This document shows positions 1-10,688 of a stretch of DNA of 10,688 bases, one piece after another (the stretch's first letter is position 1; the number at the start of each line of letters is the position of its first letter). The DNA comes from a virus (Duplodnaviria > Heunggongvirae > Uroviricota > Caudoviricetes): positions 1-10,688 of IMG/VR virus record IMGVR_UViG_2778261676_000006; one strand, 5' to 3'. A program made the position numbers and the translations under genes. The notes beneath the pieces are model-generated. The model saw only the letters and a program-made list of their open reading frames with translations, was not told the origin of the DNA and searched no databases.

Positions 1-996
1 TTATGGACGCATTATGGACATTCCTGACACCGGGTTAAGAGTCACAGCATCTTGTAAGAAATCCGGTGCAAAGTGTGCGTAGGTCATAGTTTGCTGAATG
101 TTAGAATGACCCAGGATGCGCTGCAATGTGATTATGTTACCTCCATTCATTATAAAATGTGTGGCAAATGTATGCCTCAAAACATGTACTGCTTGTCCGT
201 CAGGTAAATCGGGTTTTACTTCCCTGAGAGCGTTACGCACTTTGTAGTAACTGGCATTAAAAAGCCTGCCTGAATTTTTGGTCTTGATCCGTTTAATCAG
301 GTCCTGCGAAACGGGAATTGTCCTGCGTTTTCCGTTTTTAGTTTTCATAAACGTAACCATCTGGTTAATGATGTGTTCAGCTTTTAAATTAGCCACTTCA
401 CTCCAGCGTCCACCAGTAGAAAGGCAGACCAGAGTTGCATTTAATTCATCACCATCAAGCATGGATAACAGCCGCGTAATCTCTTCACTGGACAAAAAAG
501 CCATTTCCGTAACAGCTTCACGTAACCGTTTAATCTCACGGAACGGGTTGTGAGAGTGGTATTCACCGGCGTCAATTAACTTGGTGAACATCCCACTCAT
601 TATTGCCAGATGTCGATTTACGCTGGCTGGTTTTAGACCATCGTTCATCATTACAACGCGATAATCAGTTATCGTTTTCTTTGTTAGCTGGTCAGCTCTG
701 GACACTCCCATTTCTGCAAATTTGGCGATTATTGTCGTTAAACGCCCCCGTTCAATATCTCCACGCTCATGTGATTTTCCGTGATATATCCACCATCTGC
801 CTAACAACTCTGTAAGAGTTCGGCGGTCGGCTGGTTTCTCCAACCACTCTTTGTTGTGGTAGTTAACCAGTACATGACGTTCGAATGCTTGAGCTTCACC
901 TTTAGTTTTAAATTTCCGCCTGATACGTTTTCCATCTGCACCCTGCGGTCTGACGTCCACTTCATAACGACCATCATCGAGCTTTTTAATAGACAT
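1..996 (-). CDS. int: P2-type tyrosine integrase (site-specific recombinase, phage integrase family)
   Basis: 331-aa ORF. C-terminal catalytic box HVLRHTFATHF...LQRILGHSNIQQTMTYAHF (conserved R/H/R/Y pattern of tyrosine recombinases). N-terminus MSIKKLDDGRYEVDVRP matches P2 Int as I recall it. Lies directly downstream of the repressor on the same strand, as in P2. Confidence 0.9.
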   Translation of the reverse strand: MSIKKLDDGRYEVDVRPQGADGKRIRRKFKTKGEAQAFERHVLVNYHNKEWLEKPADRRTLTELLGRWWIYHGKSHERGDIERGRLTTIIAKFAEMGVSRADQLTKKTITDYRVVMMNDGLKPASVNRHLAIMSGMFTKLIDAGEYHSHNPFREIKRLREAVTEMAFLSSEEITRLLSMLDGDELNATLVCLSTGGRWSEVANLKAEHIINQMVTFMKTKNGKRRTIPVSQDLIKRIKTKNSGRLFNASYYKVRNALREVKPDLPDGQAVHVLRHTFATHFIMNGGNIITLQRILGHSNIQQTMTYAHFAPDFLQDAVTLNPVSGMSIMRP

Positions 997-1089
997 AAAG
1001 CCCTCCGATGACGCTGTTAACTTCTACTACTTGAAAATTAATGCAATTTTCTTTCGTACATTTACTACACACATATGCTGAATAAATCG

Positions 1090-1389
1090 TCAGCCAGTCT
1101 TCTGGTCTGAGTGGTGCAAGGTTGTTGAGTCTTGCCCAATGTGTGCGAGAGCCGGGGCTATTTGTCCAGCTGCTGGATCTGTTTCATCAAACATGAACCA
1201 GTCACGATACTTGCGAAAGCGTGGATGCTTAAACAGCTTCATACCTGCTTCCATAGGCATTTTTGATTTTCCTGATTCATATCCATGATATGTGTAGTAA
1301 TTAATTCCAATTAATTCAGCAAGTTCCTTAGTTTTAAGGCGTTCGGATTCACGGATGAGCTTTAGTTTCTCACTTTGTTCACTTGACAT
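1090..1389 (-). CDS. C: P2 C-type immunity repressor (small HTH repressor)
   Basis: The track ORF 1090..1407 uses a TTG start. The internal ATG at 1389 gives 99 aa (MSSEQSEKLKLIRESE...), the length of P2 C. The C-terminal half GQIAPALAHIGQDSTTLHHSDQKTG closely resembles the P2 C C-terminus as I recall it. HTH-like segment LKTKELAELIGINYYTYHGYESG. Sits between int and the divergent cox gene. Confidence 0.75.
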   Translation of the reverse strand: MSSEQSEKLKLIRESERLKTKELAELIGINYYTYHGYESGKSKMPMEAGMKLFKHPRFRKYRDWFMFDETDPAAGQIAPALAHIGQDSTTLHHSDQKTG

Positions 1390-1407
1390 AATTTTGCTAA
1401 TCTCCAA

Positions 1408-1482
1408 TTATATTGTTACTTGGCAATTTGTGATTCACTCAAAAAGGCTCTAGATGGCTCCAGTTGGTGAATCGCAAATCTT
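1408..1482. promoter_or_regulatory. Divergent early promoter/operator region (Pc/Pe-like) between C and cox
   Basis: 75-bp AT-rich spacer between divergent genes. A TATAAT hexamer reads on the minus strand at about 1407-1412 (plus strand attata). Direct repeat aGGCTC / tGGCTC at about 1445-1450 and 1455-1460 (10-bp periodicity) flanks a TAGAT -10-like element on the plus strand, reminiscent of the direct-repeat operators bound by P2-family C repressors. Confidence 0.4.
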
Positions 1483-1497
1483 ATGGAGGATAGCAAA

Positions 1498-1854
1498 GTG
1501 ACGACAAATGTAGAAATTTCTTGTCCAACTAGCGATGAGGCAAGTTTCGAAAATGAAGCCAAACGTAAAAGCATTCAGATTTCAGAGCGCCCATCTGATT
1601 TGCTGTCGAAAGAAGGTTTTGCTCTTTACATCGGTAAGACACCACGCGCGGTGGCTGAAATGGCTAAAGCAGGAAAGCTGCCAGCCTTCTACATGACAGA
1701 CCCATTAAAACCAAGAGGGAAAGCTGAATTATGGATTAATCGCCGTGAGTGGGACAAGTACGCAGCCCAACTGGTTGATGAAGCTCCGACAGAATGGCAT
1801 GACTGGAAAAATCGCATTAGTTACAGCAAATCAAGACATGGCCGTGCGGCTTAA
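1498..1854 (+). CDS. cox: Cox-like excisionase / early-promoter regulator
   Basis: Track ORF 1483..1854. GGAGGA at 1485-1490 followed 7 nt later by in-frame GTG 1498 suggests the real start. Segment GKTPRAVAEMAKAGKLPAFYMTDP resembles the winged-helix core of P2 Cox (GKLPVIDMTDP as recalled). First gene transcribed divergently from C. Confidence 0.6.
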   Translation: MTTNVEISCPTSDEASFENEAKRKSIQISERPSDLLSKEGFALYIGKTPRAVAEMAKAGKLPAFYMTDPLKPRGKAELWINRREWDKYAAQLVDEAPTEWHDWKNRISYSKSRHGRAA

Positions 1855-2035
1855 GGTGGAAAGGATGAACGAGCCTCGTTGTATTGCTCTGTTATTGCGT
1901 AACGAAAGCCCCAGGGCGATTGACTTCACCATCACCCACGGGAAGGGACGCAAGGGAATCATTATCCGTACCAAAAAACAGAGTCCGTTAAAAAAGGCTC
2001 TGACCTTTCTGAAAAGCCGGAGGGTCTGGAAATGA
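1799..2035 (+). CDS. Small early-region protein (P2 orf78-like position), start uncertain
   Basis: Open frame 1745..2035 ends with ATGA overlap into gene B. Candidate starts are ATG 1799 (78 aa), ATG 1838, or ATG 1865 (preceded by AAGGTGGA, the best SD). The stop is firm; the start is not resolvable from sequence alone. Confidence 0.35.
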   Translation: MTGKIALVTANQDMAVRLKVERMNEPRCIALLLRNESPRAIDFTITHGKGRKGIIIRTKKQSPLKKALTFLKSRRVWK

Positions 2036-2532
2036 CAGTGATGACGCTTAACCTCGTCGAAAAACAGCCAGCAGCCATGCGCCGGATAATTGGTAAGCAT
2101 CTGGCCGTCCCTCGCTGGCAGGAGACATGTGATTATTATAATCAGATGATGGAACGCGAACGGCTAACGGTTTGCTTTCATGCGCAGTTAAAACAGCGTC
2201 ACGCAACGATGCGTTTTGAAGAAATGAATGACGTCGAACGTGAACGGCTGGTTTGTGCAATTGATGAACTGCGTGGGGCATTCTCAAAACGCCGTCAGGT
2301 TGGCGCAAGTGAGTATGCATATATTAGTTTTTTAACAGTCAGTCAGCGTCGCACTTTATTTATGCACGCACGACTGACAGAAAAAGAATTTAACCAGCCA
2401 TACTGGCGAATTAATGAGGAATCATGTTACTGGCGTGATGCTTTATTCCGTGCATTACGTGAATTATTCAGCCTGTTTGAGTATGCACCGACAATTCTGA
2501 CGTCGGTAAAACCAGAGCAATATCTGCATTAA
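2032..2532 (+). CDS. B: Replication gene B protein (P2 gpB family, DnaB helicase loader)
   Basis: 166-aa ORF; the sequence MT.MTLNLVEKQPAAMRRIIGKHLAVPRWQ...FEYAPTILTSVKPEQYLH matches P2 B protein as I recall it, and the length is the same. SD GGAGGG lies upstream; the start overlaps the upstream stop (ATGA). Confidence 0.85.
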   Translation: MTVMTLNLVEKQPAAMRRIIGKHLAVPRWQETCDYYNQMMERERLTVCFHAQLKQRHATMRFEEMNDVERERLVCAIDELRGAFSKRRQVGASEYAYISFLTVSQRRTLFMHARLTEKEFNQPYWRINEESCYWRDALFRALRELFSLFEYAPTILTSVKPEQYLH

Positions 2533-2552
2533 ATAATTAACCAGAGTTTTTA

Positions 2553-2581
2553 ACGCACTTAATCGTGCGGGGCTTCTTTTT
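2553..2581 (+). terminator. Weak hairpin plus T-tract between B and the next ORF (possible attenuator)
   Basis: cgcac-ttaatc-gtgcg 5-bp stem followed by gggcttcttttt. Short stem and interrupted T-run, so weak at best. Confidence 0.2.
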
Positions 2582-2595
2582 GCCTGGAGAAAGTC

Positions 2596-2820
2596 ATGCA
2601 TACAGTTTCTGAAAATCAGTGCGGTAAATACGCATTACTGCTGCAACAGGCCAGAACCGAAGCACAGGCCGACGCTGCGACGCGCTTTTCTTCTCATCTT
2701 GACGCCATGATTCGCCATATCACAAAGGCGGAGTTATCCCGCGTGGAGATAGTCGAGCTGCTCAGTCAGGAGTCGGAAAAATTTCACAATATCGGATTGT
2801 CTCGCGGGGAGGTGCTTTGA
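2596..2820 (+). CDS. Hypothetical early-region protein (P2 orf80-like position)
   Basis: 74-aa ORF with SD GGAGA upstream of ATG 2596; same strand and spacing as the small ORFs between B and A in P2-like phages. Confidence 0.65.
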
Positions 2821-3119
2821 TGTCCTGTTCTCATTCAATTGTATTACTGAATAACGCCTTAAAAATCGCCGTTATGAAAAATGGCGATTTATCTCTTATT
2901 CAACTTTGTCTTGATAAAGAAAAACGCGACATAACTGAATCTGTTATCGCGATTTATCAGAATGAATTAAACCTCCTGTCTGATATGGTCAATTTACTTG
3001 TTAAACGCGCTGTGTTCCACAAGCAAATTTCCTCAGTGGATGAACTGACAAAATTAACGACAGAACTCGCCAGTTATTGCGCTGATGTATCCAGGAAACT
3101 TAACGATAAAAGGAGCTGA
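2820..3119 (+). CDS. Hypothetical early-region protein (P2 orf81-like position)
   Basis: Track ORF starts at TTG 2817; ATG 2820 overlaps the upstream stop (TGATG), with SD GGGAGG upstream. About 99 aa. Confidence 0.65.
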   Translation: MSCSHSIVLLNNALKIAVMKNGDLSLIQLCLDKEKRDITESVIAIYQNELNLLSDMVNLLVKRAVFHKQISSVDELTKLTTELASYCADVSRKLNDKRS

Positions 3120-3121
3120 TA

Positions 3122-3223
3122 ATGCCGGACAACGTAGATTTTATTCAGGAACAACAGGCTGAATTACTGGAGCGCCAGATTAACGCGGCAAGGGTAAAAC
3201 ATTGCGGTGTTTCTGCGCTGGTT
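3122..3223 (+). pseudogene. 5' fragment of orf82-like gene (probable TraR/DksA-type zinc-finger protein), truncated at a deletion junction
   Basis: Good SD (AAAGGAG) and ATG 3122. The N-terminus MPDNVDFIQEQQAELLERQINAARVKHCG looks like the start of a TraR/DksA-like small protein, but the C4 zinc-finger cysteines never appear. After about codon 34 the frame continues as an out-of-frame reading of gene A sequence up to 3538. Confidence 0.45.
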
Positions 3224-3993
3224 ACCGTGAACTACGCAAATTGCCTCGCGGCGTCAGCATTGCTGATGAGTTTGACGAGCGCGTCGAGGCTGCACGCGCC
3301 GCCGCAGACAGTGGTGATTTTGCGCTGTATATCAGCGCGCAGGGCGGGGCAAATGTCCCGCGCGATTGTCAGACTGTCAGGGTCGCCCGTAGTCCGTCGG
3401 ATGACGTTAACGAGTACGAGGAAGAAGTCGAGAGAGTGGTCGGCATTTACGCGCCGCATCTCGGCGCGCGTCATATTCATATCACCAGAACCACGGACTG
3501 GCGCATTGTGCCGAAAGTGCCGGTCATTGAGCCTTTGACTTTAAAAAGCGGCATCGCCGCGCCTCGGAGTCCTGTCAATAACTGTGGAAAGCTCACCGGT
3601 GGTGATACTTCGTCACCGGCTCCCACGCCTTCTGAACACGCCGCAGCAGTGCTTAATCTGGTTGATGATGGTGTTATCGAATGGAATGACCCGGAGGTCG
3701 TGAGGGCGCTCAGGGGTGCATTAAAACACGACCTGAGAACGCCAAACCGTCAGCAAAGAAACGGAAGCCCGTTAAAACCACATGAAATTGCACCATCGGC
3801 CAGACTGACCCGGTCGGAAAGAATGCAAATTACCCGTATCCGCGTTGACCTTACTCAGAACGGTATCAGGCCGCAGCGATGGGAGCTTGAGGCGCTGGCG
3901 CGTGGCGCGACCGTAAATTATGACGGGAAAAAATTCACGTATCCGGTCGCTGATGAGTGGCCGGGATTCTCAACAGTAATGGAGTGGAAATGA
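3221..3993 (+). pseudogene. A: 3' fragment (about 258 codons) of P2-type replication initiator gene A, lacking the N-terminal two-thirds
   Basis: The 263-aa open frame has no credible start (opens at TTG 3202 inside the orf82 frame; no SD or ATG near its 5' end). The sequence ...YRELRKLPRGVSIADEFDERVEAARAAADSGDFALYISAQGG...TVMEWK matches the C-terminal region of P2 gpA as I recall it. Full-length A is about 760 aa. Confidence 0.7.
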
Positions 3994-4445
3994 TGGCAAA
4001 AATTCACGAGGTAAAGCTGCACGCAAAATATTTTGACCTTGTGCTGGAAGGAAAGAAACGCGCAGAGTTTCGGAAAAATGACCGTAATTATGAGCGCGGG
4101 GACACGTTGATTTTGCATGAATGGGTGCAGGGTGTGTATACGGGGCGAAAGGTTGAAGCCCGGATAACAGATGTTACTGACTTGTCAGACTGGCTGGAAG
4201 ATTATGTCTTGCTAAGTATTGAGCTGCTTAATACAGGCGCATATGAGTTTGTGAACTGGAAAGAACTTAGTGAGCGTGGTCTGGTATTCAGAATTAATCA
4301 TGAAATTATGCATCAGCTCGGCCTTGCTGTTGTGTATGAACCAGAGACGGGGATGTCTGGCGGGGCAGTGGTTGGTGCGGATGGGATATGGAACTATTCA
4401 GATGAACAGGTGGAGCGTGCACAGCAAAACGGGTGGCTTGGATAA
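3990..4445 (+). CDS. ASCH/DUF3850-like (PUA-fold) protein
   Basis: Track ORF 3957..4445; ATG 3990 overlaps the stop of the A fragment (ATGA). N-terminal KIHEVKLHAKYFDLVLEGKKRAEFRKNDRNYERGDTLILHEW resembles ASCH/DUF3850 domains common in phage early regions. Confidence 0.65.
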   Translation: MMAKIHEVKLHAKYFDLVLEGKKRAEFRKNDRNYERGDTLILHEWVQGVYTGRKVEARITDVTDLSDWLEDYVLLSIELLNTGAYEFVNWKELSERGLVFRINHEIMHQLGLAVVYEPETGMSGGAVVGADGIWNYSDEQVERAQQNGWLG

Positions 4446-4651
4446 TGCACAGAATACCAGGCGAGATACCGCAGCATAAAACTAAAAATATCAAGCTGAT
4501 GGCCATTGTTCACCGTCTACAGCAGATTATGGTCAACGAAAATCTGACGCCCGATGAGCTAGTCGGGTGTGCCGAAATAGTCCGGGATAATTACGTATGG
4601 CTTAACTATATCGGTCAGCCCAGCGCTGCACCGCCACCACGCAGACGATAG
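4445..4651 (+). CDS. Hypothetical small protein (68 aa)
   Basis: ATG 4445 overlaps the upstream stop (TAATG); GC-rich like the phage backbone. No recognisable motifs. Confidence 0.4.
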   Translation: MHRIPGEIPQHKTKNIKLMAIVHRLQQIMVNENLTPDELVGCAEIVRDNYVWLNYIGQPSAAPPPRRR

Positions 4652-4840
4652 AGAACGCAGCCAGCTCAGGATTGGCGGGGGATAGAATAACGAGCATAGT
4701 GATGCGATTAGACAAACAGACTGACTGGTACACTTAGGATGGTTATAGTGGTTTCTAAGTGCTTTAGCGATACATCTGGTGGACTGTTTTACCAACCTCA
4801 GAGTTAGCTGAATTTTTAACAAAATACCATTTTGATAGAT

Positions 4841-4869
4841 TTGCCTAATTTATTAATTAAACTATACTG
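4841..4869 (+). promoter_or_regulatory. Candidate sigma70-like promoter for the + strand cargo operon
   Basis: TTGCCT (about 4841-4846), 16-nt spacer, TATACT (about 4863-4868), in an AT-rich stretch about 90 bp upstream of ATG 4960. Confidence 0.3.
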
Positions 4870-4959
4870 GACTTATACACAGTGTTCTGTTAATTGTTAG
4901 GTTGGTAAGATATTGTGAGGAGGTGATTACTATCTTGGCATCAATCAAGTGGAGGTTAA

Positions 4960-5196
4960 ATGATGAATATATTTGAACGTATTATAGGTAAAGCTGCTAT
5001 TGAAAAGGAAAGAGAACTGGCGAGGAGGCTTGAAGCATCTGGAACAAACACTGTTGAGGTGGTAGGTCGAGGCGCGATTATCACGTCTAAAGAAGACTTG
5101 GCAAGCTCAGATACAGTAAAATTGATGAAAATTAAAGCAAGAAAAATAGTTTCTGAGCAGGTAAAGCAAGAAGAAAAAATGGCTAAAGGGAATTAA
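4960..5196 (+). CDS. Small charged soluble protein (78 aa), first gene of a two-gene cargo operon
   Basis: GGAGG at 4951-4955 precedes ATG 4960/4963. Lysine/glutamate-rich, no TM segment. The stop is 2 nt before the start of the next gene. Low GC. Confidence 0.6.
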   Translation: MMNIFERIIGKAAIEKERELARRLEASGTNTVEVVGRGAIITSKEDLASSDTVKLMKIKARKIVSEQVKQEEKMAKGN

Positions 5197-5198
5197 TA

Positions 5199-5960
5199 AT
5201 GTTTGCTTTATTAATTATTCCATTACTTGTGAGTGGTTATATTGTATTAACCACTCATCCTTATCATTTCTATAGATTACACCGTTATGATGGGCAGTTG
5301 TTATATATGAAGTCAGCCGCCTTTGGTCTGTGGTGTTTTATATGGACATTGATTATAGCTTACTTAATAAAATGGATATGTCCGAGCTTCCATCCTGTCA
5401 CGATGGTTCGGGAACAATTAGATCTCAAACTTAGTGACAATGGTACTGAAAGAATCATAGGATGGATGATTTTACTTTCATGTGGAACGATATTTTTGGC
5501 TTGGATATGGAGTGTCGGTGCTAGATATTTGGTTATATATAGAGCTAAAATTATAAATTATATCCAAGGGGTAAAGGCTGCCAATATTGATTATGAGAAT
5601 CTTGTCATGCTAAGGATGAGGCAAGAGCTTATTAATGATAATCCAATGGATGAAATATTTTTTGATTCGTTAGTTGATAGACGTTCAATACTTATTACGT
5701 TGCAAAATAAAAAGACATATGTAGGAATTGTTAACGCATTAGGTGAGCCTAACGAGAAAGAAGGACCTAACCAGTATGTTTCAATCTATCCTATTATCTC
5801 TGGGTATAGAGATAAGGATTCATTGAAAGTAATCTTGGTGAATGAATATAGAGAGCTTGAGGATGCTGATACTAGTATCATCTTTCCACTAAAAGAAATT
5901 TCGCAAGTTTCTTGGTTTGATATGGATATTCATAAAATAGTTGAAAATAATAAGGTGTAG
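5199..5960 (+). CDS. Predicted integral membrane protein (3 N-terminal TM helices plus a soluble C-terminal domain of about 145 aa)
   Basis: 253-aa ORF. Hydrophobic segments FALLIIPLLVSGYIVL, AAFGLWCFIWTLIIAYLIKWI and IIGWMILLSCGTIFLAWIWSV. SD AAAGGGAA upstream; tightly coupled to the upstream gene. Low GC. Confidence 0.7.
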   Translation: MFALLIIPLLVSGYIVLTTHPYHFYRLHRYDGQLLYMKSAAFGLWCFIWTLIIAYLIKWICPSFHPVTMVREQLDLKLSDNGTERIIGWMILLSCGTIFLAWIWSVGARYLVIYRAKIINYIQGVKAANIDYENLVMLRMRQELINDNPMDEIFFDSLVDRRSILITLQNKKTYVGIVNALGEPNEKEGPNQYVSIYPIISGYRDKDSLKVILVNEYRELEDADTSIIFPLKEISQVSWFDMDIHKIVENNKV

Positions 5961-5963
5961 TAA

Positions 5964-5988
5964 ATGGTCACCTATAAAAGGTGACCAT
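5964..5988. terminator. Bidirectional intrinsic terminator between the convergent cargo operons
   Basis: Perfect 9-bp inverted repeat ATGGTCACC-tataaaa-GGTGACCAT, followed by a T-run on the + strand (ttattttt) and flanked by an A-rich stretch (T-rich on the - strand). Sits exactly between the stop at 5960 (+) and the stop at 5994 (-). Confidence 0.55.
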
Positions 5989-5993
5989 AATGC

Positions 5994-8258
5994 TTATTTT
6001 TGACGAATCCTGATTTTTGGTTGTTCACGAACAACAATATCAGTTTCTTTCCAACCAAGATTATTTATTTCAACCTCGGCTTCGTTGTAGACTGTAGTAG
6101 AATTGGCAAGAGATCTTAACGTAATAGCCAATACAGCACGTTGAGGTGAAGATAGAGGCTCTTGCTCTGCTCGTCTCTGAACATCAAGTTTAAGTCTCCA
6201 TTGCTCCCCATTTATACCTTGCGGAAATTGTTTTCTATAAACTTTGACTGGAGACCATTTGAAGCCATTTTCTATCAGTACCTTTTCAAATAATTCACTC
6301 TTTTCTTTTATTTGTGGAATTTTTCCGCTATGTATCCATTTAGCGTTAACTGGATCATAAGTGTAAGTCCCGAATGACACATCCACATTAGAACGGCAAT
6401 ATTCGGATGGGTAGTCATAATCAAGCGGTGGAGAATAAACGAGTGTCATAATAATTTCACCTGTGAATTTTCCATCCTCAGTACGTAATGACTGTGGTAT
6501 TACAAATGGCGTTCTACTGAATTCAATACCTTCTCGGGTATCTATTTCAAATAGAAATGTAATCTCATTTTTATTGCAACCAATAATATCATTTATATGA
6601 TCGCTTGGGCGTCCAAATCCTTGATAATTAAACGCATAATGCTCCGTTTTGGCTGGTGAGTTTTTTAACGCAGAATGAATTAATAGTGCCTTGATACGTT
6701 CAGGCGATGGTGAAATAGAACCATTAACATCTAGTTCATGCCACAGTGATGCCGCTAAACTTGAGATTAACGGTGCTGATAAACTTGTGCCAATACTTTC
6801 GCAAAGAGCATTGTCCTCGCCAATAGCTATGATTCCGGTATGTTCACAGTTTAATTTACTGTCACAATTACCTCCAAAGTGATTTATCTCTGGTTTGGGT
6901 ATAAAGGCTGGGCCGGGACCTCTTCTAGAAAAAGATGAAGGTTCAAATCTTTTGACCACAGAGTCAGACGATTCTAAATGGGCAACTGAGCCAACAGTTA
7001 ATGAACGAACAGAATCTGCGGGGGCTGATATTCTGTCATGCCCACCTAATTCTTGAGGAGGCCAGGTTCGTTGAGGATCATAAATGTAGTTGCCGGATGC
7101 TACGACGAAAAGACAATCATGCTCATCATGAAGTGCATTTAAAAAATGCCCCAATTCAGAGAAGCTGTCTTCAGAACATGGGGATTGACAACCTAATGAC
7201 AGATTCCATACACGTACTTCTGGATAGGTGGTCACAGCCTCTCGGATAGCTTTCATTAATTGTGGCAATTTGAGCGTACCATCTTTGGGAAAGGCTGCAA
7301 CATCAACAATTTCAGCTTGGCATTGAGGAAAACCAGCATAGTTATTCAACCATCTTCCATTAATTGCTAAACTTGCAACCATGTTCCCATGAGAATAGTC
7401 GTGTTCTCCTTTTACTAAATCTAAACTATCCCAAATCCATGGCCTAAGTATGTTGTTATTGGGATCGACTCCGCTATCTATAATTCCGAGTAGTGGATAA
7501 TGTTTATCCTCTTGAGGTAAGGGAAAATCATCTAGGTCTAGAGTTTCAGCAGGAATATATTGCGATACTGTATGAGTAAGACCAAATGTTGGCATAGGTT
7601 CTAATTTTCGTATGCCAATAAAACTTGCCAGTTGGGCGATGTTATCATTCCCTTTTACTTCATATATACTCAAATCTGAACTGATATCATACTTTTTGGG
7701 TTTTTGTATTCCTAGTTCATCTGCAAATTCCATTAATTCTTTGTCGATACTGCGGTTAGTTGTTCTATCTTTATGGTCAAAGAGTTTCAGAAGAAAACTA
7801 TCTGATTTATTTTTATCTATAACATCATGGTTAAGACTAAAAGGTTCGATCTTTTCAATTACAGCAATATGTACTGTCCCATTATGAGAATTAGTGCTAT
7901 TTTCAATTTTTTTGCGAAGTTGTGCTAACCCTTTTTCAGTAACACTTATAAGTAATTCTCCAAAATTATCACTGCCTATTACGGGACATGTATTATCACC
8001 TAATAGGCTTGATGGGCGATGTGACTTAGCAAGAGCTTTTTCATGAAGAGTAACTCTAGCCACCGCCGGTATATTGGGCCATTTTTTAAATGAGCTCTGG
8101 AAAAAATTTTTAACGTCATCGACTTCTTGTTTGAGTCTATTTTTTAGACTAGTTGTTACTGTTCGGATAGGTTGTTTCTTTCCGAAATTATATGTTTTTT
8201 CAGTAAAATCTTGAGGTGTCGCCTCAATTATTTTTATTGGTCTTTCTTTGTTACTCAT
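5994..8258 (-). CDS. ietS: S8 subtilisin-family serine peptidase, cytoplasmic, with extra N- and C-terminal domains (IetS-like)
   Basis: 754-aa ORF. S8 catalytic motifs in canonical order: Asp LLGIIDSGVD, His HGNMVASLA, oxyanion Asn VVASGNY, Ser GTSLSAPLISSLAA. No N-terminal signal peptide (MSNKERPIKIIEATPQDF). The start overlaps the stop of the upstream ATPase (ATGA at 8255-8258). Confidence 0.8.
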   Translation of the reverse strand: MSNKERPIKIIEATPQDFTEKTYNFGKKQPIRTVTTSLKNRLKQEVDDVKNFFQSSFKKWPNIPAVARVTLHEKALAKSHRPSSLLGDNTCPVIGSDNFGELLISVTEKGLAQLRKKIENSTNSHNGTVHIAVIEKIEPFSLNHDVIDKNKSDSFLLKLFDHKDRTTNRSIDKELMEFADELGIQKPKKYDISSDLSIYEVKGNDNIAQLASFIGIRKLEPMPTFGLTHTVSQYIPAETLDLDDFPLPQEDKHYPLLGIIDSGVDPNNNILRPWIWDSLDLVKGEHDYSHGNMVASLAINGRWLNNYAGFPQCQAEIVDVAAFPKDGTLKLPQLMKAIREAVTTYPEVRVWNLSLGCQSPCSEDSFSELGHFLNALHDEHDCLFVVASGNYIYDPQRTWPPQELGGHDRISAPADSVRSLTVGSVAHLESSDSVVKRFEPSSFSRRGPGPAFIPKPEINHFGGNCDSKLNCEHTGIIAIGEDNALCESIGTSLSAPLISSLAASLWHELDVNGSISPSPERIKALLIHSALKNSPAKTEHYAFNYQGFGRPSDHINDIIGCNKNEITFLFEIDTREGIEFSRTPFVIPQSLRTEDGKFTGEIIMTLVYSPPLDYDYPSEYCRSNVDVSFGTYTYDPVNAKWIHSGKIPQIKEKSELFEKVLIENGFKWSPVKVYRKQFPQGINGEQWRLKLDVQRRAEQEPLSSPQRAVLAITLRSLANSTTVYNEAEVEINNLGWKETDIVVREQPKIRIRQK

Positions 8259-9418
8259 AATATCTCTCTATAGTTCTTAGTTAGCCTTGACACTTTAGCA
8301 TTTGAAAGCCCTAGTATTTTTGCTATCTTTCGTATTGTAAATCTTTTGGGATTGTATTCTCTGAGAGTGGTCACAATCTTTATAAGTAAATTATCTTCTT
8401 CATCAAATGTAACTCCCTTCGCTTCTAAGATAGCCTCGACTAAAAATCGGGTATCGATTTGTTTATTATTGTAAACCAGAGCATGTCGCTCAGATCTTAA
8501 GCAGCATTGTTCTATAAATGAGCAGTTTAGCCCTGATGATATTTCCGCAAGGTCATCAACAAAATCGTCATATGTAGCTTTTATGTTTGAATATTGTTCA
8601 AATAGTTGTTTTCTGACTTCAAAATTAGGCAATCCAATAGATATTCTATACTCAAAGCGCCTCCAAACTGCGCTATCTAGAAGATTTTCATGATTACTTG
8701 CAGCAATCAATATTGTTTCTTCAGGTAGATTGTCAATATTTTGCAATAAAGAAACCACCACCCTCTTCAGTTCACCTAACTCATGCTGATCATCTCTAGC
8801 CTTTGCTAGAGAATCTAGTTCATCTAGAAATAAAACACATGGTGCTTTACTTGCATACTCAAATAGCTGCCTGATATTTTTAGAAGTAGACCCCAGATAT
8901 GATGAGACTAAGGAGTCACATCTTGCAGTAAGAAGCGGTAAATTTAGACAGGATGCAATATATTTTGATGTCAAGGTTTTACCACAACCTGGTGGCCCAT
9001 ATAAAATCATAGAGGATGTCACGCCAAGACCGGCATCCTTTAATTCTTTAGCTCGTTCAGTGAAAGTCAAAAATTCTTTAATTTTTTTCAGAGTGCTATC
9101 TTTCAACAATGGGAGTTGAATTTCAGAAGACGGTTGAGTTACGTCTGCTAAATCAAATTTAGTTTCTTTATCTACAGGTAATGTATCAAGACGTTCAAAA
9201 ATAGGTGATGTACTGCGTGATACTTTCTGCAAGTTAAACGTGTTTTTATCTTGAATACTACCTCTAATGGCTGAAGCAAGCTCAGGCAGCCCCATAGAAT
9301 CATAGGAACGCGCGAGTTTCGAAGCCTGCCGAACAAAAGCAACTTTATCCCCTTTGAGTCCAAGACTGATAAGCTGCGAAAGTATCTCGTTTGTGGTCAT
9401 TTGTGATACAAACCTCAT
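8255..9418 (-). CDS. ietA: AAA+ ATPase with C-terminal HTH-like tail (IetA-like)
   Basis: 387-aa ORF. Walker A GPPGCGKT (about 8975-8998), Walker B CVLFLDELD, sensor-1 LIAASNHEN, probable Arg finger in VWRRFEY. C-terminal IRKIAKILGLSNAKVSRLTKNY resembles a helix-turn-helix. Translationally coupled to the downstream S8 peptidase. Confidence 0.8.
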   Translation of the reverse strand: MRFVSQMTTNEILSQLISLGLKGDKVAFVRQASKLARSYDSMGLPELASAIRGSIQDKNTFNLQKVSRSTSPIFERLDTLPVDKETKFDLADVTQPSSEIQLPLLKDSTLKKIKEFLTFTERAKELKDAGLGVTSSMILYGPPGCGKTLTSKYIASCLNLPLLTARCDSLVSSYLGSTSKNIRQLFEYASKAPCVLFLDELDSLAKARDDQHELGELKRVVVSLLQNIDNLPEETILIAASNHENLLDSAVWRRFEYRISIGLPNFEVRKQLFEQYSNIKATYDDFVDDLAEISSGLNCSFIEQCCLRSERHALVYNNKQIDTRFLVEAILEAKGVTFDEEDNLLIKIVTTLREYNPKRFTIRKIAKILGLSNAKVSRLTKNYREIL

Positions 9419-9600
9419 TAATCTGTTGTCTAAATGGCTTATAGGTGAGACAAATTTCTATTTTAATGTAGTTTATATGTATTTTGGTGAAACGAACACT
9501 ATGTTTTACATAAATCTTTCAGGTTTGGAGTTCTTGGAGGGCATAGAGTTGCATCAATTTGCATTCTAATTAGACTTTTTTATTGCTATCGTATTCTACA
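9419..9600 (-). promoter_or_regulatory. AT-rich upstream region, presumed promoter of the ATPase-peptidase operon
   Basis: About 180 bp of AT-rich non-coding sequence upstream of the ATPase start on the minus strand, with several -10/-35-like hexamers; no single promoter can be assigned by eye. Confidence 0.3.
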
Positions 9601-9659
9601 TGTGACTAGGTCTGCCCTTCCTGATGCGTTTGCATTAAAACCTCCCCATGAAGCGGGCG

Positions 9660-9678
9660 GGCGAGGCGGGGAAAGCAC
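9660..9678. other. cos site (19-nt cohesive-end sequence of P2/P4 type)
   Basis: GGCGAGGCGGGGAAAGCAC matches the P2/P4 cohesive-end sequence as I recall it. It lies where cos is expected, between the cargo and the portal-side end of the genome. Confidence 0.6.
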
Positions 9679-9810
9679 TGCGCGCTGGCGGTGGTGCTGA
9701 TTTTATTTTTTCAGCGTCTGAGCGCGTCGTGATGGCGTTTAGATTGTGTTCCGGGGCCTGCGGGATGTTTTGCGCGGAGGTGAGCGTGTGAGGGCGTGAT
9801 GACGGGGTGT

Positions 9811-9832
9811 AAAAAAGCCGCCCGCAGGCGGC
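9811..9832 (-). terminator. Minus-strand intrinsic terminator (in P2 would end the leftward portal/terminase operon)
   Basis: On the minus strand: GCCGCC-tgcg-GGCGGC hairpin followed by TTTTTT (plus strand reads aaaaaa gccgcccgcaggcggc). Confidence 0.45.
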
Positions 9833-9938
9833 GATGTTCAGCCGTTGTCAGTGTCCAGTGAGTAGTTTTTAAAGCGGATGACCTCCTGACCGAGCCAGCC
9901 GTTTATTTCCCGAATCCTGTCCTGTAGCCTCCCGTAAC

Positions 9939-10688
9939 AGGCTGGAAGCCAGTGTCGCTCCGTCACTGGCCGGAATTAAAATCCCGCACATCGACCAGTC
10001 GCAGGAGTCTGATGCAAAATTCCTGACCCGCCTTGCTGAACGCAACGGCGGTGAGGTGTCGGTAAAAATGGGAAAATTGTTGTTTCTCAAAGCGGGGCAG
10101 GGGGTGACGGCCAGCGGTAAAAAAATCCCGCAGATTACCATCGCCCGCAGCGACGGCGACCGTCATCATTTTGCGATTGCTGACCGTGGAGCCTACACCG
10201 GCGTAACGGCAAAGTGGTTACACACCAAAGACCCGAAGCCACAAAAGCAGAAGGTAAAACTGAAACGCAAAAAGAAAGAGAAACACCTGCGCGCACTGGA
10301 GCACCCGAAAGCGAAACCGGTCACGCAGAAGAAAGCGCCAAAAGTACCGGAAGCGCGCGAAGGTGAATACATGGCCGGTGAGGATGACAATGTTTTTGCC
10401 CTGACCACGGTATATGCCACGAAAGCGCAGGCCATGCGCGCCGCTCAGGCGAAGTGGGATAAACTGCAACGGGGCGTTGCGGAGTTCTCCATCAGCCTGG
10501 CTACCGGTCGGGCAGATATTTACACGGAAACACCGGTTAAGGTGTCAGGCTTTAAGCGTGTCATAGACGAGCAGGACTGGACCATCACTAAGGTGACACA
10601 TTTTCTGAATAATAGCGGCTTCACGACGTCCTTAGAGCTTGAGGTCAGGCTTTCTGATGTGGAGTACGAAACAGAAGATGATGAGTGA
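9939..10688 (+). pseudogene. D: 5'-truncated tail gene D (P2 gpD / phage late control D family), C-terminal part only
   Basis: The frame opens right after a stop at 9936-9938. The sequence IKIPHIDQSQESDAKFLTRLAERNGGEVSVKMGKLLFLKAGQG...SLELEVRLSDVEYETEDDE matches the C-terminal region of P2 gpD as I recall it (full length about 387 aa). The first standard start is GTG 10056 (track ORF 10056..10688). Only about 260 bp separate it from cos, with no N-terminal coding sequence. Confidence 0.75.

Follow-up and report, generated by a model that had tools for sequence, protein, structure and literature searches.

A divergent IetAS-type gene pair predicted in the A-to-cos cargo of a P2-like prophage remnant

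Introduction

IetAS systems consist of an AAA+ ATPase, IetA, and an S8-family protease (subtilase), IetS. In this study, we analysed such a pair at positions 5994 to 9418 of a stretch of viral DNA of 10,688 nucleotides (nt), IMG/VR record IMGVR_UViG_2778261676_000006, positions 1 to 10,688, which is called the window below. In the founding system, on plasmid pTiC58 of Agrobacterium, IetS is the toxin and IetA is the antitoxin (PMC13069673). In IetAS, protease activity is needed for defence, and ietA mutants could not be cloned (PMC13069673). Protease activity is also needed in ietHAS, where IetA acts as an antitoxin (PMC13069673). The SGI1 homologue (S026/S025) is a working toxin-antitoxin pair that promotes maintenance of the island (PMC5006074). 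The ietAS genes of Bacillus cereus cause abortive infection, with collapse of the culture at high multiplicity of infection, and their toxicity is triggered by the SPbeta protein YosG (bioRxiv 10.1101/2022.08.27.505566).

As of April 2026, how IetAS works against phages was still termed unknown (PMC13069673), and our literature search found no mechanistic or structural paper on IetAS. A preliminary description of the window had called the mechanism unresolved. This holds for the anti-phage mechanism, but published work had already assigned IetS as toxin and IetA as antitoxin and described the protease requirement, abortive infection and the YosG trigger. The pair in the window is probably, with a probability of about 80%, a functional member of IetAS, that is, a toxin-antitoxin-like abortive-infection module carried as A-to-cos cargo of a P2-like prophage.

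Identification of the ietAS gene pair

The two genes and their junction are located as follows:
8255..9418 (minus strand), ietA, 387 amino acids (aa) as the open reading frame is drawn, 381 aa from Met7 (9400)
5994..8258 (minus strand), ietS, S8 subtilase of 754 aa, predicted to be cytoplasmic
8255..8258 (minus strand), ATGA overlap of the ietA stop and the ietS start (translational coupling), junction ...ATATT ATGA GTAAC...

As judged from the sequence, the pair is a member of the IetAS family (ietAS in PADLOC, Gao_Iet in DefenseFinder): the IetA profile, the IetS profile, the gene order, the subtilase catalytic residues and the AAA+ motifs of the family were all found. Residues 9-382 of IetA aligned with positions 3-370 of the 374 in PADLOC profile PDLC02196 (E=1.4e-131, 437 bits), and residues 1-747 of IetS with positions 1-747 of the 749 in PDLC02197 (E=1.1e-273, 908 bits). 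Three more PADLOC profiles for IetA and seven more for IetS also matched. An ietAS-like architecture had been proposed earlier, with a profile search as the check, and these full-length matches bear it out. The best NCBIfam models were IteA_antiphage (NF042959) and IteS_antiphage (NF042956).

The ietA gene is located directly upstream of ietS on the same strand, and the 4-nt coupling described previously was seen at 8255-8258. A scan with the IetS alignment, one genome per species, gave 80 loci from many bacterial phyla and several archaea. An IetA homologue was found directly upstream of IetS in 77 of the 77 loci having upstream DNA. The distance from ietA to the nearest possible ietS start was -101 to +37 nt in 82 of 86 loci, so that the two genes overlapped or were separated by at most 37 nt.

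Both open reading frames were exactly as given in the preliminary description, but the true start of ietA is probably Met7, at base 9400 instead of 9418, because all of the family profiles and the alignments with homologues (pTiC58, Escherichia coli) begin there. The RefSeq start for an identical ietA is 18 nt downstream of the first Met of the open reading frame.

Sequence features of IetA and IetS

IetA is a classic-clade AAA+ ATPase and comprises an N-terminal helical region of about 110 aa, an AAA module (137-262) with a lid, and a tail resembling a helix-turn-helix (HTH) at about 353-385. Pfam AAA PF00004 matched with E=1.1e-31. The intact Walker A and B, sensor-1 and arginine finger reported before were all located: Walker A is GPPGCGKT at 141-148 (K147), Walker B is LFLDE (D199/E200), sensor-1 is N242, and the arginines of the second region of homology are R253/R254. 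Among 81 distinct homologues, these residues were 99-100% conserved. A pore-loop-like segment, SSYLG, is present at 172-176, and SS[Y/F/L]LGxT was invariant at this position in the 81 homologues, with Y, F or L at residue 174. The nearest solved structures were the D2 rings of VCP, Cdc48 and Rix7 (E about 1e-48), which are substrate-threading rings. The C-terminal tail (about 353-385; window 8258-8360) gave many consistent sub-threshold HTH matches, with E=7.5e-4 for HTH_28. Most long IetA homologues had this tail, but the short types of pTiC58 and E24377A did not; a role of the tail in autoregulation or DNA sensing is possible.

In IetS, Pfam Peptidase_S8 matched residues 255-549 with E=6.7e-24. 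In the alignment with Tk-SP, a subtilase of Thermococcus, D261, H290, N390 and S492 fell on its catalytic residues, and they were invariant in an alignment of 42 sequences with identity down to 36%, in agreement with the full D/H/N/S set assigned earlier to this 754-aa peptidase. The predicted model had a predicted local distance difference test score (pLDDT) of 89.2 and a predicted template modelling score (pTM) of 0.91. In this model, IetS is predicted to have an N-terminal region (1-250) with two beta-alpha-beta-beta-alpha-beta units at 65-139 and 154-221, a catalytic domain at 255-549 and then a C-terminal beta-sandwich at about 565-740. No IetS-like structure was found in the PDB. The N-terminus is hydrophilic and without a signal peptide; IetS is therefore predicted to be cytoplasmic, and a secreted subtilase was rejected because the signal peptide is absent.

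Invariant motifs outside the catalytic domain were also observed in IetS. A-x-A-K-(S-H)-R-P occupies residues 75-82 (window about 8015-8036) in the first N-terminal module, and the sandwich contains E-Y-C-x-x-N at 619-624 (about 6387-6404) and G-F-K-W at 665-668 (about 6255-6266).

The pro-domain-regulated subtilases pro-subtilisin E, Tk-SP, CspB and PCSK9 were compared with IetS for their working mode and not for membership. Unlike them, IetS is predicted to be cytoplasmic, and it has two such modules, a C-terminal sandwich and an AAA+ partner. The likeness of its N-terminal modules to pro-domains is an analogy.

Comparison with described IetAS systems

By sequence comparison, the pair is assigned to a divergent enterobacterial branch of IetAS. 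The canonical system (Gao_Iet; 'anti-phage ATPase IteA' and 'S8 family anti-phage peptidase IteS' at NCBI), represented by E. coli CT282, has the same gene order, a three-part IetS and a long IetA with the C-terminal tail. The CT282 proteins are 382 and 752 aa long, compared with 381/387 and 754 aa in the window. However, the CT282 locus is carried by an integrative and conjugative element (ICE) and not by a P2 hotspot, and it is without the 78-aa and 253-aa neighbours described below.

The founding pTiC58 IetA/IetS and the SGI1 homologue share with the window the order of an AAA+ antitoxin gene upstream of an S8 protease toxin gene. Both pTiC58 proteins matched PADLOC Iet profiles, and IetA of the window was 28% identical to pTiC58 IetA over the full length (E=1e-35). 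The pTiC58 IetA is short (328 aa), without the C-terminal HTH-like tail, and the pTiC58 IetS has 836 aa.

The SNF2-associated form, ietHAS, is common in E. coli and was represented by strain E24377A. It also consists of an AAA ATPase and an S8 peptidase and is called ietAS by PADLOC, but IetA has 326 aa, IetS has 795 aa, and identity to the window is 33% for IetA and 24% for IetS. At this locus (L100, 4030-14793), an SNF2 helicase gene is located upstream of ietAS and a type III restriction-modification pair downstream; it belongs to another branch than the pair in the window. This arrangement agrees with the reported co-localisation of type III restriction-modification (RM III) and ietAS and with the ietHAS variant. 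For the window itself, the ietHAS variant was rejected because there is no helicase gene, and upstream of ietA there are only about 240 nt of non-coding DNA, cos and a remnant of gene Q. The cloning primers of the ECOR52 ietAS (Wu et al.) had no match in the window or in any compared locus, and no link was made.

The P2-like carrier element

The blastn alignment of the window with Peduovirus P24A7b gave the following map:
1-3223, the genes int, C, cox and B together with small genes, ending in the middle of a DksA-like gene
3222-4664, final third of the replication gene A and a DUF3850 gene
4665..9659 (unstranded), low-GC cargo of the P2 A-to-cos/Q hotspot, 36.6% GC, no counterpart in P24A7b by blastn
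9419..9659 (minus strand), about 240 nt of non-coding DNA from ietA to the cos-proximal edge of the cargo, presumed promoter region of ietAS
9660..9928 (unstranded), right edge of the hotspot, consisting of the cos-proximal region and the terminal ~90 nt of portal gene Q, 92% identity to P24A7b positions 1-279
about 9838-9926 (minus strand), Q remnant, placed by the portal coding sequence in locus L001
9925-10688, remnant of tail gene D (C-terminal two-thirds), aligned to P24A7b over 9925-10686

The cargo is thus located between the gene A remnant with the DUF3850 gene and cos with portal gene Q, as expected for this hotspot and as described before for this low-GC cargo. The cassette had a GC content of 37.3% and the whole cargo 36.6%, compared with 46.4% and 54.9% in the left and right flanks, respectively. 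The gpA-gpQ (cos) slot of P2-like phages is a defence hotspot in which P2 holds tin and old, and many such hotspots harbour two or more systems (PMC9122126); an earlier statement that this slot is known for anti-phage systems agrees with that work. The window shares with P2 tin/old and the other gpA-gpQ cargo (Rousset et al. 2022) the slot near cos, the low GC content, the (here presumed) defence function and the frequent presence of more than one system. The proteins of that cargo are unrelated to IetAS, and the carrier in the window is a deletion remnant. In the main text of PMC9122126, IetAS is neither among the known systems named for the hotspot nor among the validated ones.

In essence, the window represents an entire prophage remnant of ~11 kb and not a phage, because the P24A7b map shows two losses. 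The first, of 1.9 kb compared with intact P2-like phages, includes the N-terminal two-thirds of gene A; its junction at 3222-3229 (within 3122-3993) connects a DksA/TraR-like gene, broken off in its middle, with the final third of gene A, and the element is therefore unable to replicate as a phage. The second, of 22.7 kb, has its junction at 9925-9928, where the end of Q is fused to the C-terminal two-thirds of D, and removes all head, lysis and tail genes, i.e., every structural gene between Q and D. The genes int, C, cox and B, the immunity genes and the cargo are retained. It is common for defective P2 elements to retain defence genes in intact form (bioRxiv 10.64898/2026.02.27.708500).

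Among 5426 complete E. coli genomes, the cassette was found in 12, which were called unrelated, with 99.7-99.9% identity and intact open reading frames. The copy of strain E302, the only one of the 12 viewed in detail, is carried by a P2-like prophage, with the cassette between the same hotspot genes. Neither deletion of the window was present in any of these 12 genomes, and the exact arrangement of the window was absent from the 5426 genomes. In E302, gene A is interrupted by an IS21-family element, the right end of which coincides with the junction of the 1.9-kb deletion in the window. None of the isolated phages of the collection had this allele, the best match being 32% identical. Carriage by an intact phage was rejected because of the large deletions and because the allele occurs in no isolated phage of the collection.

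A strong terminator-like hairpin was located at 9832-9817 (minus strand), between the Q remnant and ietA. A search of the window against Rfam gave no match, and a repeat search of the window gave only short, chance-like matches besides the inverted repeat described below.

The convergent 78-aa and 253-aa genes

The cargo also contains two genes that converge on ietS:
4960..5196 (plus strand), gene for a charged soluble protein of 78 aa, in one operon with the 253-aa gene and 2 nt upstream of it, match to phrog_37504 (function unknown)
5199..5960 (plus strand), gene for a 253-aa protein with three predicted transmembrane helices and a C-terminal Sm/Hfq-like barrel
5964..5988 (unstranded), perfect hairpin with a 10-bp stem, ATGGTCACCT-ATAAA-AGGTGACCAT, from the terminator scan, in the 33-nt gap between ietS and the 253-aa gene

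In the 253-aa protein, transmembrane helices are predicted at about 1-20, 39-62 and 85-108, and the Sm/Hfq-like beta-barrel at about 149-240. PADLOC, Pfam and NCBIfam gave no match for either protein, even at lenient thresholds, and in a Foldseek search, viral models matched only weakly, with a few of the matches named Sm-like. A 24-nt inverted repeat (4789-4812 and 4885-4908, 79% complementary, 72 nt apart) is located in non-coding DNA just upstream of the 78-aa gene and may be a regulatory site.

IetAS together with the two genes was found in the E. coli P2-like hotspot; in Citrobacter youngae; in Pectobacterium, on an island between HicAB/VasI and an IS3 element; at a chromosomal non-prophage site; in a 186/P2-like prophage; in an Enterobacter island; in an E. 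coli Rac-like lambdoid prophage; and in a Rahnella P2-like prophage. These observations raise the tentative alternative that the 78-aa and 253-aa genes are the working partner of this IetAS branch, so that four genes would form a new IetAS subtype; we regard this as possible, though doubtful. As such a partner, the two genes could supply a membrane effector that becomes active upon cleavage by IetS, a nucleic-acid-sensing input, a sensor signalling to IetA or a substrate of IetS. The pair was convergent beside IetS in 8 of 8 independent loci with IetS at least 58% identical, several of them in unrelated contexts, and the stop-to-stop gap between ietS and the 253-aa gene was 24-48 nt in homologous loci. 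The identities of IetS and the 253-aa protein dropped in parallel (100/100, 91/87, 78/76, 72/74, 63/59, 60/56, 60/56 and 58/54%), but transfer as a block could alone explain this co-divergence. In Pectobacterium, DNA similarity to the window extended over 4947-9046, ending inside ietA, and thus covered the four-gene block and little else. IetAS is also known to take on extra components, as in ietHAS (PMC13069673).

However, IetAS operates as two genes elsewhere, and the 78-aa/253-aa pair was missing from the 75 loci with IetS identity of at most 51%. Related pairs occur alone, without IetAS, beside integrases at prophage ends (82 and 272 aa in E. coli, 93 and 278 aa in Klebsiella; 36-48% identity). 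The convergent orientation and the intervening hairpin, which is likely a bidirectional terminator, imply separate transcripts, and P2 hotspots often carry more than one independent system (PMC9122126). We read IetAS and the 78-aa/253-aa pair as two autonomous modules in unusually faithful linkage. The lone relatives make up an uncharacterised cargo module that is widespread at the ends of Enterobacterales prophages. In their loci (L087-L093), the queried ~270-aa gene was located at 6001-6837, and one relative was listed in 1851 index blocks of the collection.

Proposed mode of action and alternative explanations

In other members of the family, toxin and antitoxin roles, a protease requirement, abortive infection and a phage-protein trigger have been described, and by analogy these may apply to the pair in the window. 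A restraint model is proposed on the basis of these toxin and antitoxin data, the likeness of IetA to ring-forming ATPases with its pore-loop segment, and the N-terminal modules of IetS. IetA, a classic-clade AAA+ ATPase whose pore-loop-like motif is conserved, would form a ring. Driven by ATP, it would hold cytoplasmic IetS latent, probably through the two pro-domain-like N-terminal modules of IetS. A phage protein or process of early infection would upset this restraint, the freed IetS would cleave essential proteins of the cell (or of the phage), and the infected cell would halt growth or die ahead of phage release. In this model, we infer the restraint in the manner of an unfoldase, the analogy to pro-domains and what the trigger and targets are; this analysis itself showed that the pair belongs to the family, that its active sites are intact, that its gene order is conserved and where it is located.

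Several points weigh against the reading of the cassette as a functional two-gene IetAS system. Both proteins missed the NCBIfam equivalog cut-offs (385.3 vs 510 bits for IetA and 782.4 vs 900 bits for IetS), and their RefSeq names are therefore generic, 'AAA family ATPase' and 'S8 family peptidase'. Identity to the canonical iteA/iteS of the E. coli CT282 ICE was 36% for IetA and 34% for IetS, and BLASTP of IetS against pTiC58 IetS gave a local match only (24% over 133 aa, E=1e-3). There was no consensus sigma-70 site on the minus strand of 9419..9659 and no clear ietA promoter; promoter-like sites were not enriched over shuffles, with 19 found and 16.2 expected. The literature search found no published experiment on this allele or branch, and the full-text search did not find the RefSeq accessions of the four proteins. 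The constant presence of the 78-aa/253-aa pair also means that a two-gene description is possibly incomplete.

It can also be asked whether the cassette is mainly a post-segregational killing module that stabilises its carrier rather than a phage defence, which we consider unlikely. The founding role of IetAS is stability of plasmid pTiC58 (PMC13069673), and the SGI1 homologue aids maintenance of its island (PMC5006074); the role documented for these two is plasmid or island stability and not defence. In the window, most of gene A is gone from the prophage, as are 22.7 kb of structural genes, while int, the immunity genes and the cargo are intact. However, retention of defence genes is common in defective P2 elements (bioRxiv 10.64898/2026.02.27.708500), the A-to-cos slot is a documented defence hotspot (PMC9122126), and several members of IetAS have proven anti-phage activity (PMC13069673; bioRxiv 10.1101/2022.08.27.505566). 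The defence and addiction roles can also coexist.

A two-component ATP-dependent protease, similar to ClpXP or the PAN-proteasome, in which IetA unfolds a phage protein for IetS and defence is direct and non-suicidal, would account for the fact that IetA shows every feature of a threading AAA+ unfoldase, including the conserved pore-loop-like motif, and that the pairing of ATPase and peptidase is obligate and universal in the family. This is quite improbable. IetS alone is toxic and is neutralised by IetA in pTiC58, SGI1 and ietHAS (PMC13069673; PMC5006074), which argues for restraint rather than delivery of a substrate. In the Bacillus system, cultures collapse at high multiplicity of infection and toxicity depends on the trigger (bioRxiv 10.1101/2022.08.27.505566), and subtilases are non-chambered proteases that need no unfoldase. 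An inactive relic in a dead prophage, which the heavily deleted carrier and the lack of a recognised promoter could suggest, is very improbable given two full-length open reading frames with all catalytic residues intact, 99.7-99.9% identity across 12 unrelated E. coli genomes and end-to-end family profile matches. The cassette is best read as an IetAS abortive-infection module of the toxin-antitoxin type.

Significance

The pair in the window is a divergent branch of a known family in the expected kind of place, and PADLOC would label it. Its practical value is that of a compact, E. coli-native IetAS allele of a mechanistically unsolved class, with constant neighbour genes that possibly point to a partner or target. 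A functional linkage of the four genes would establish a new IetAS subtype and provide a candidate substrate or effector and the first handle on the targets of IetS. If the linkage is not functional, the 78-aa/253-aa pair is still an uncharacterised module and a candidate defence system itself.

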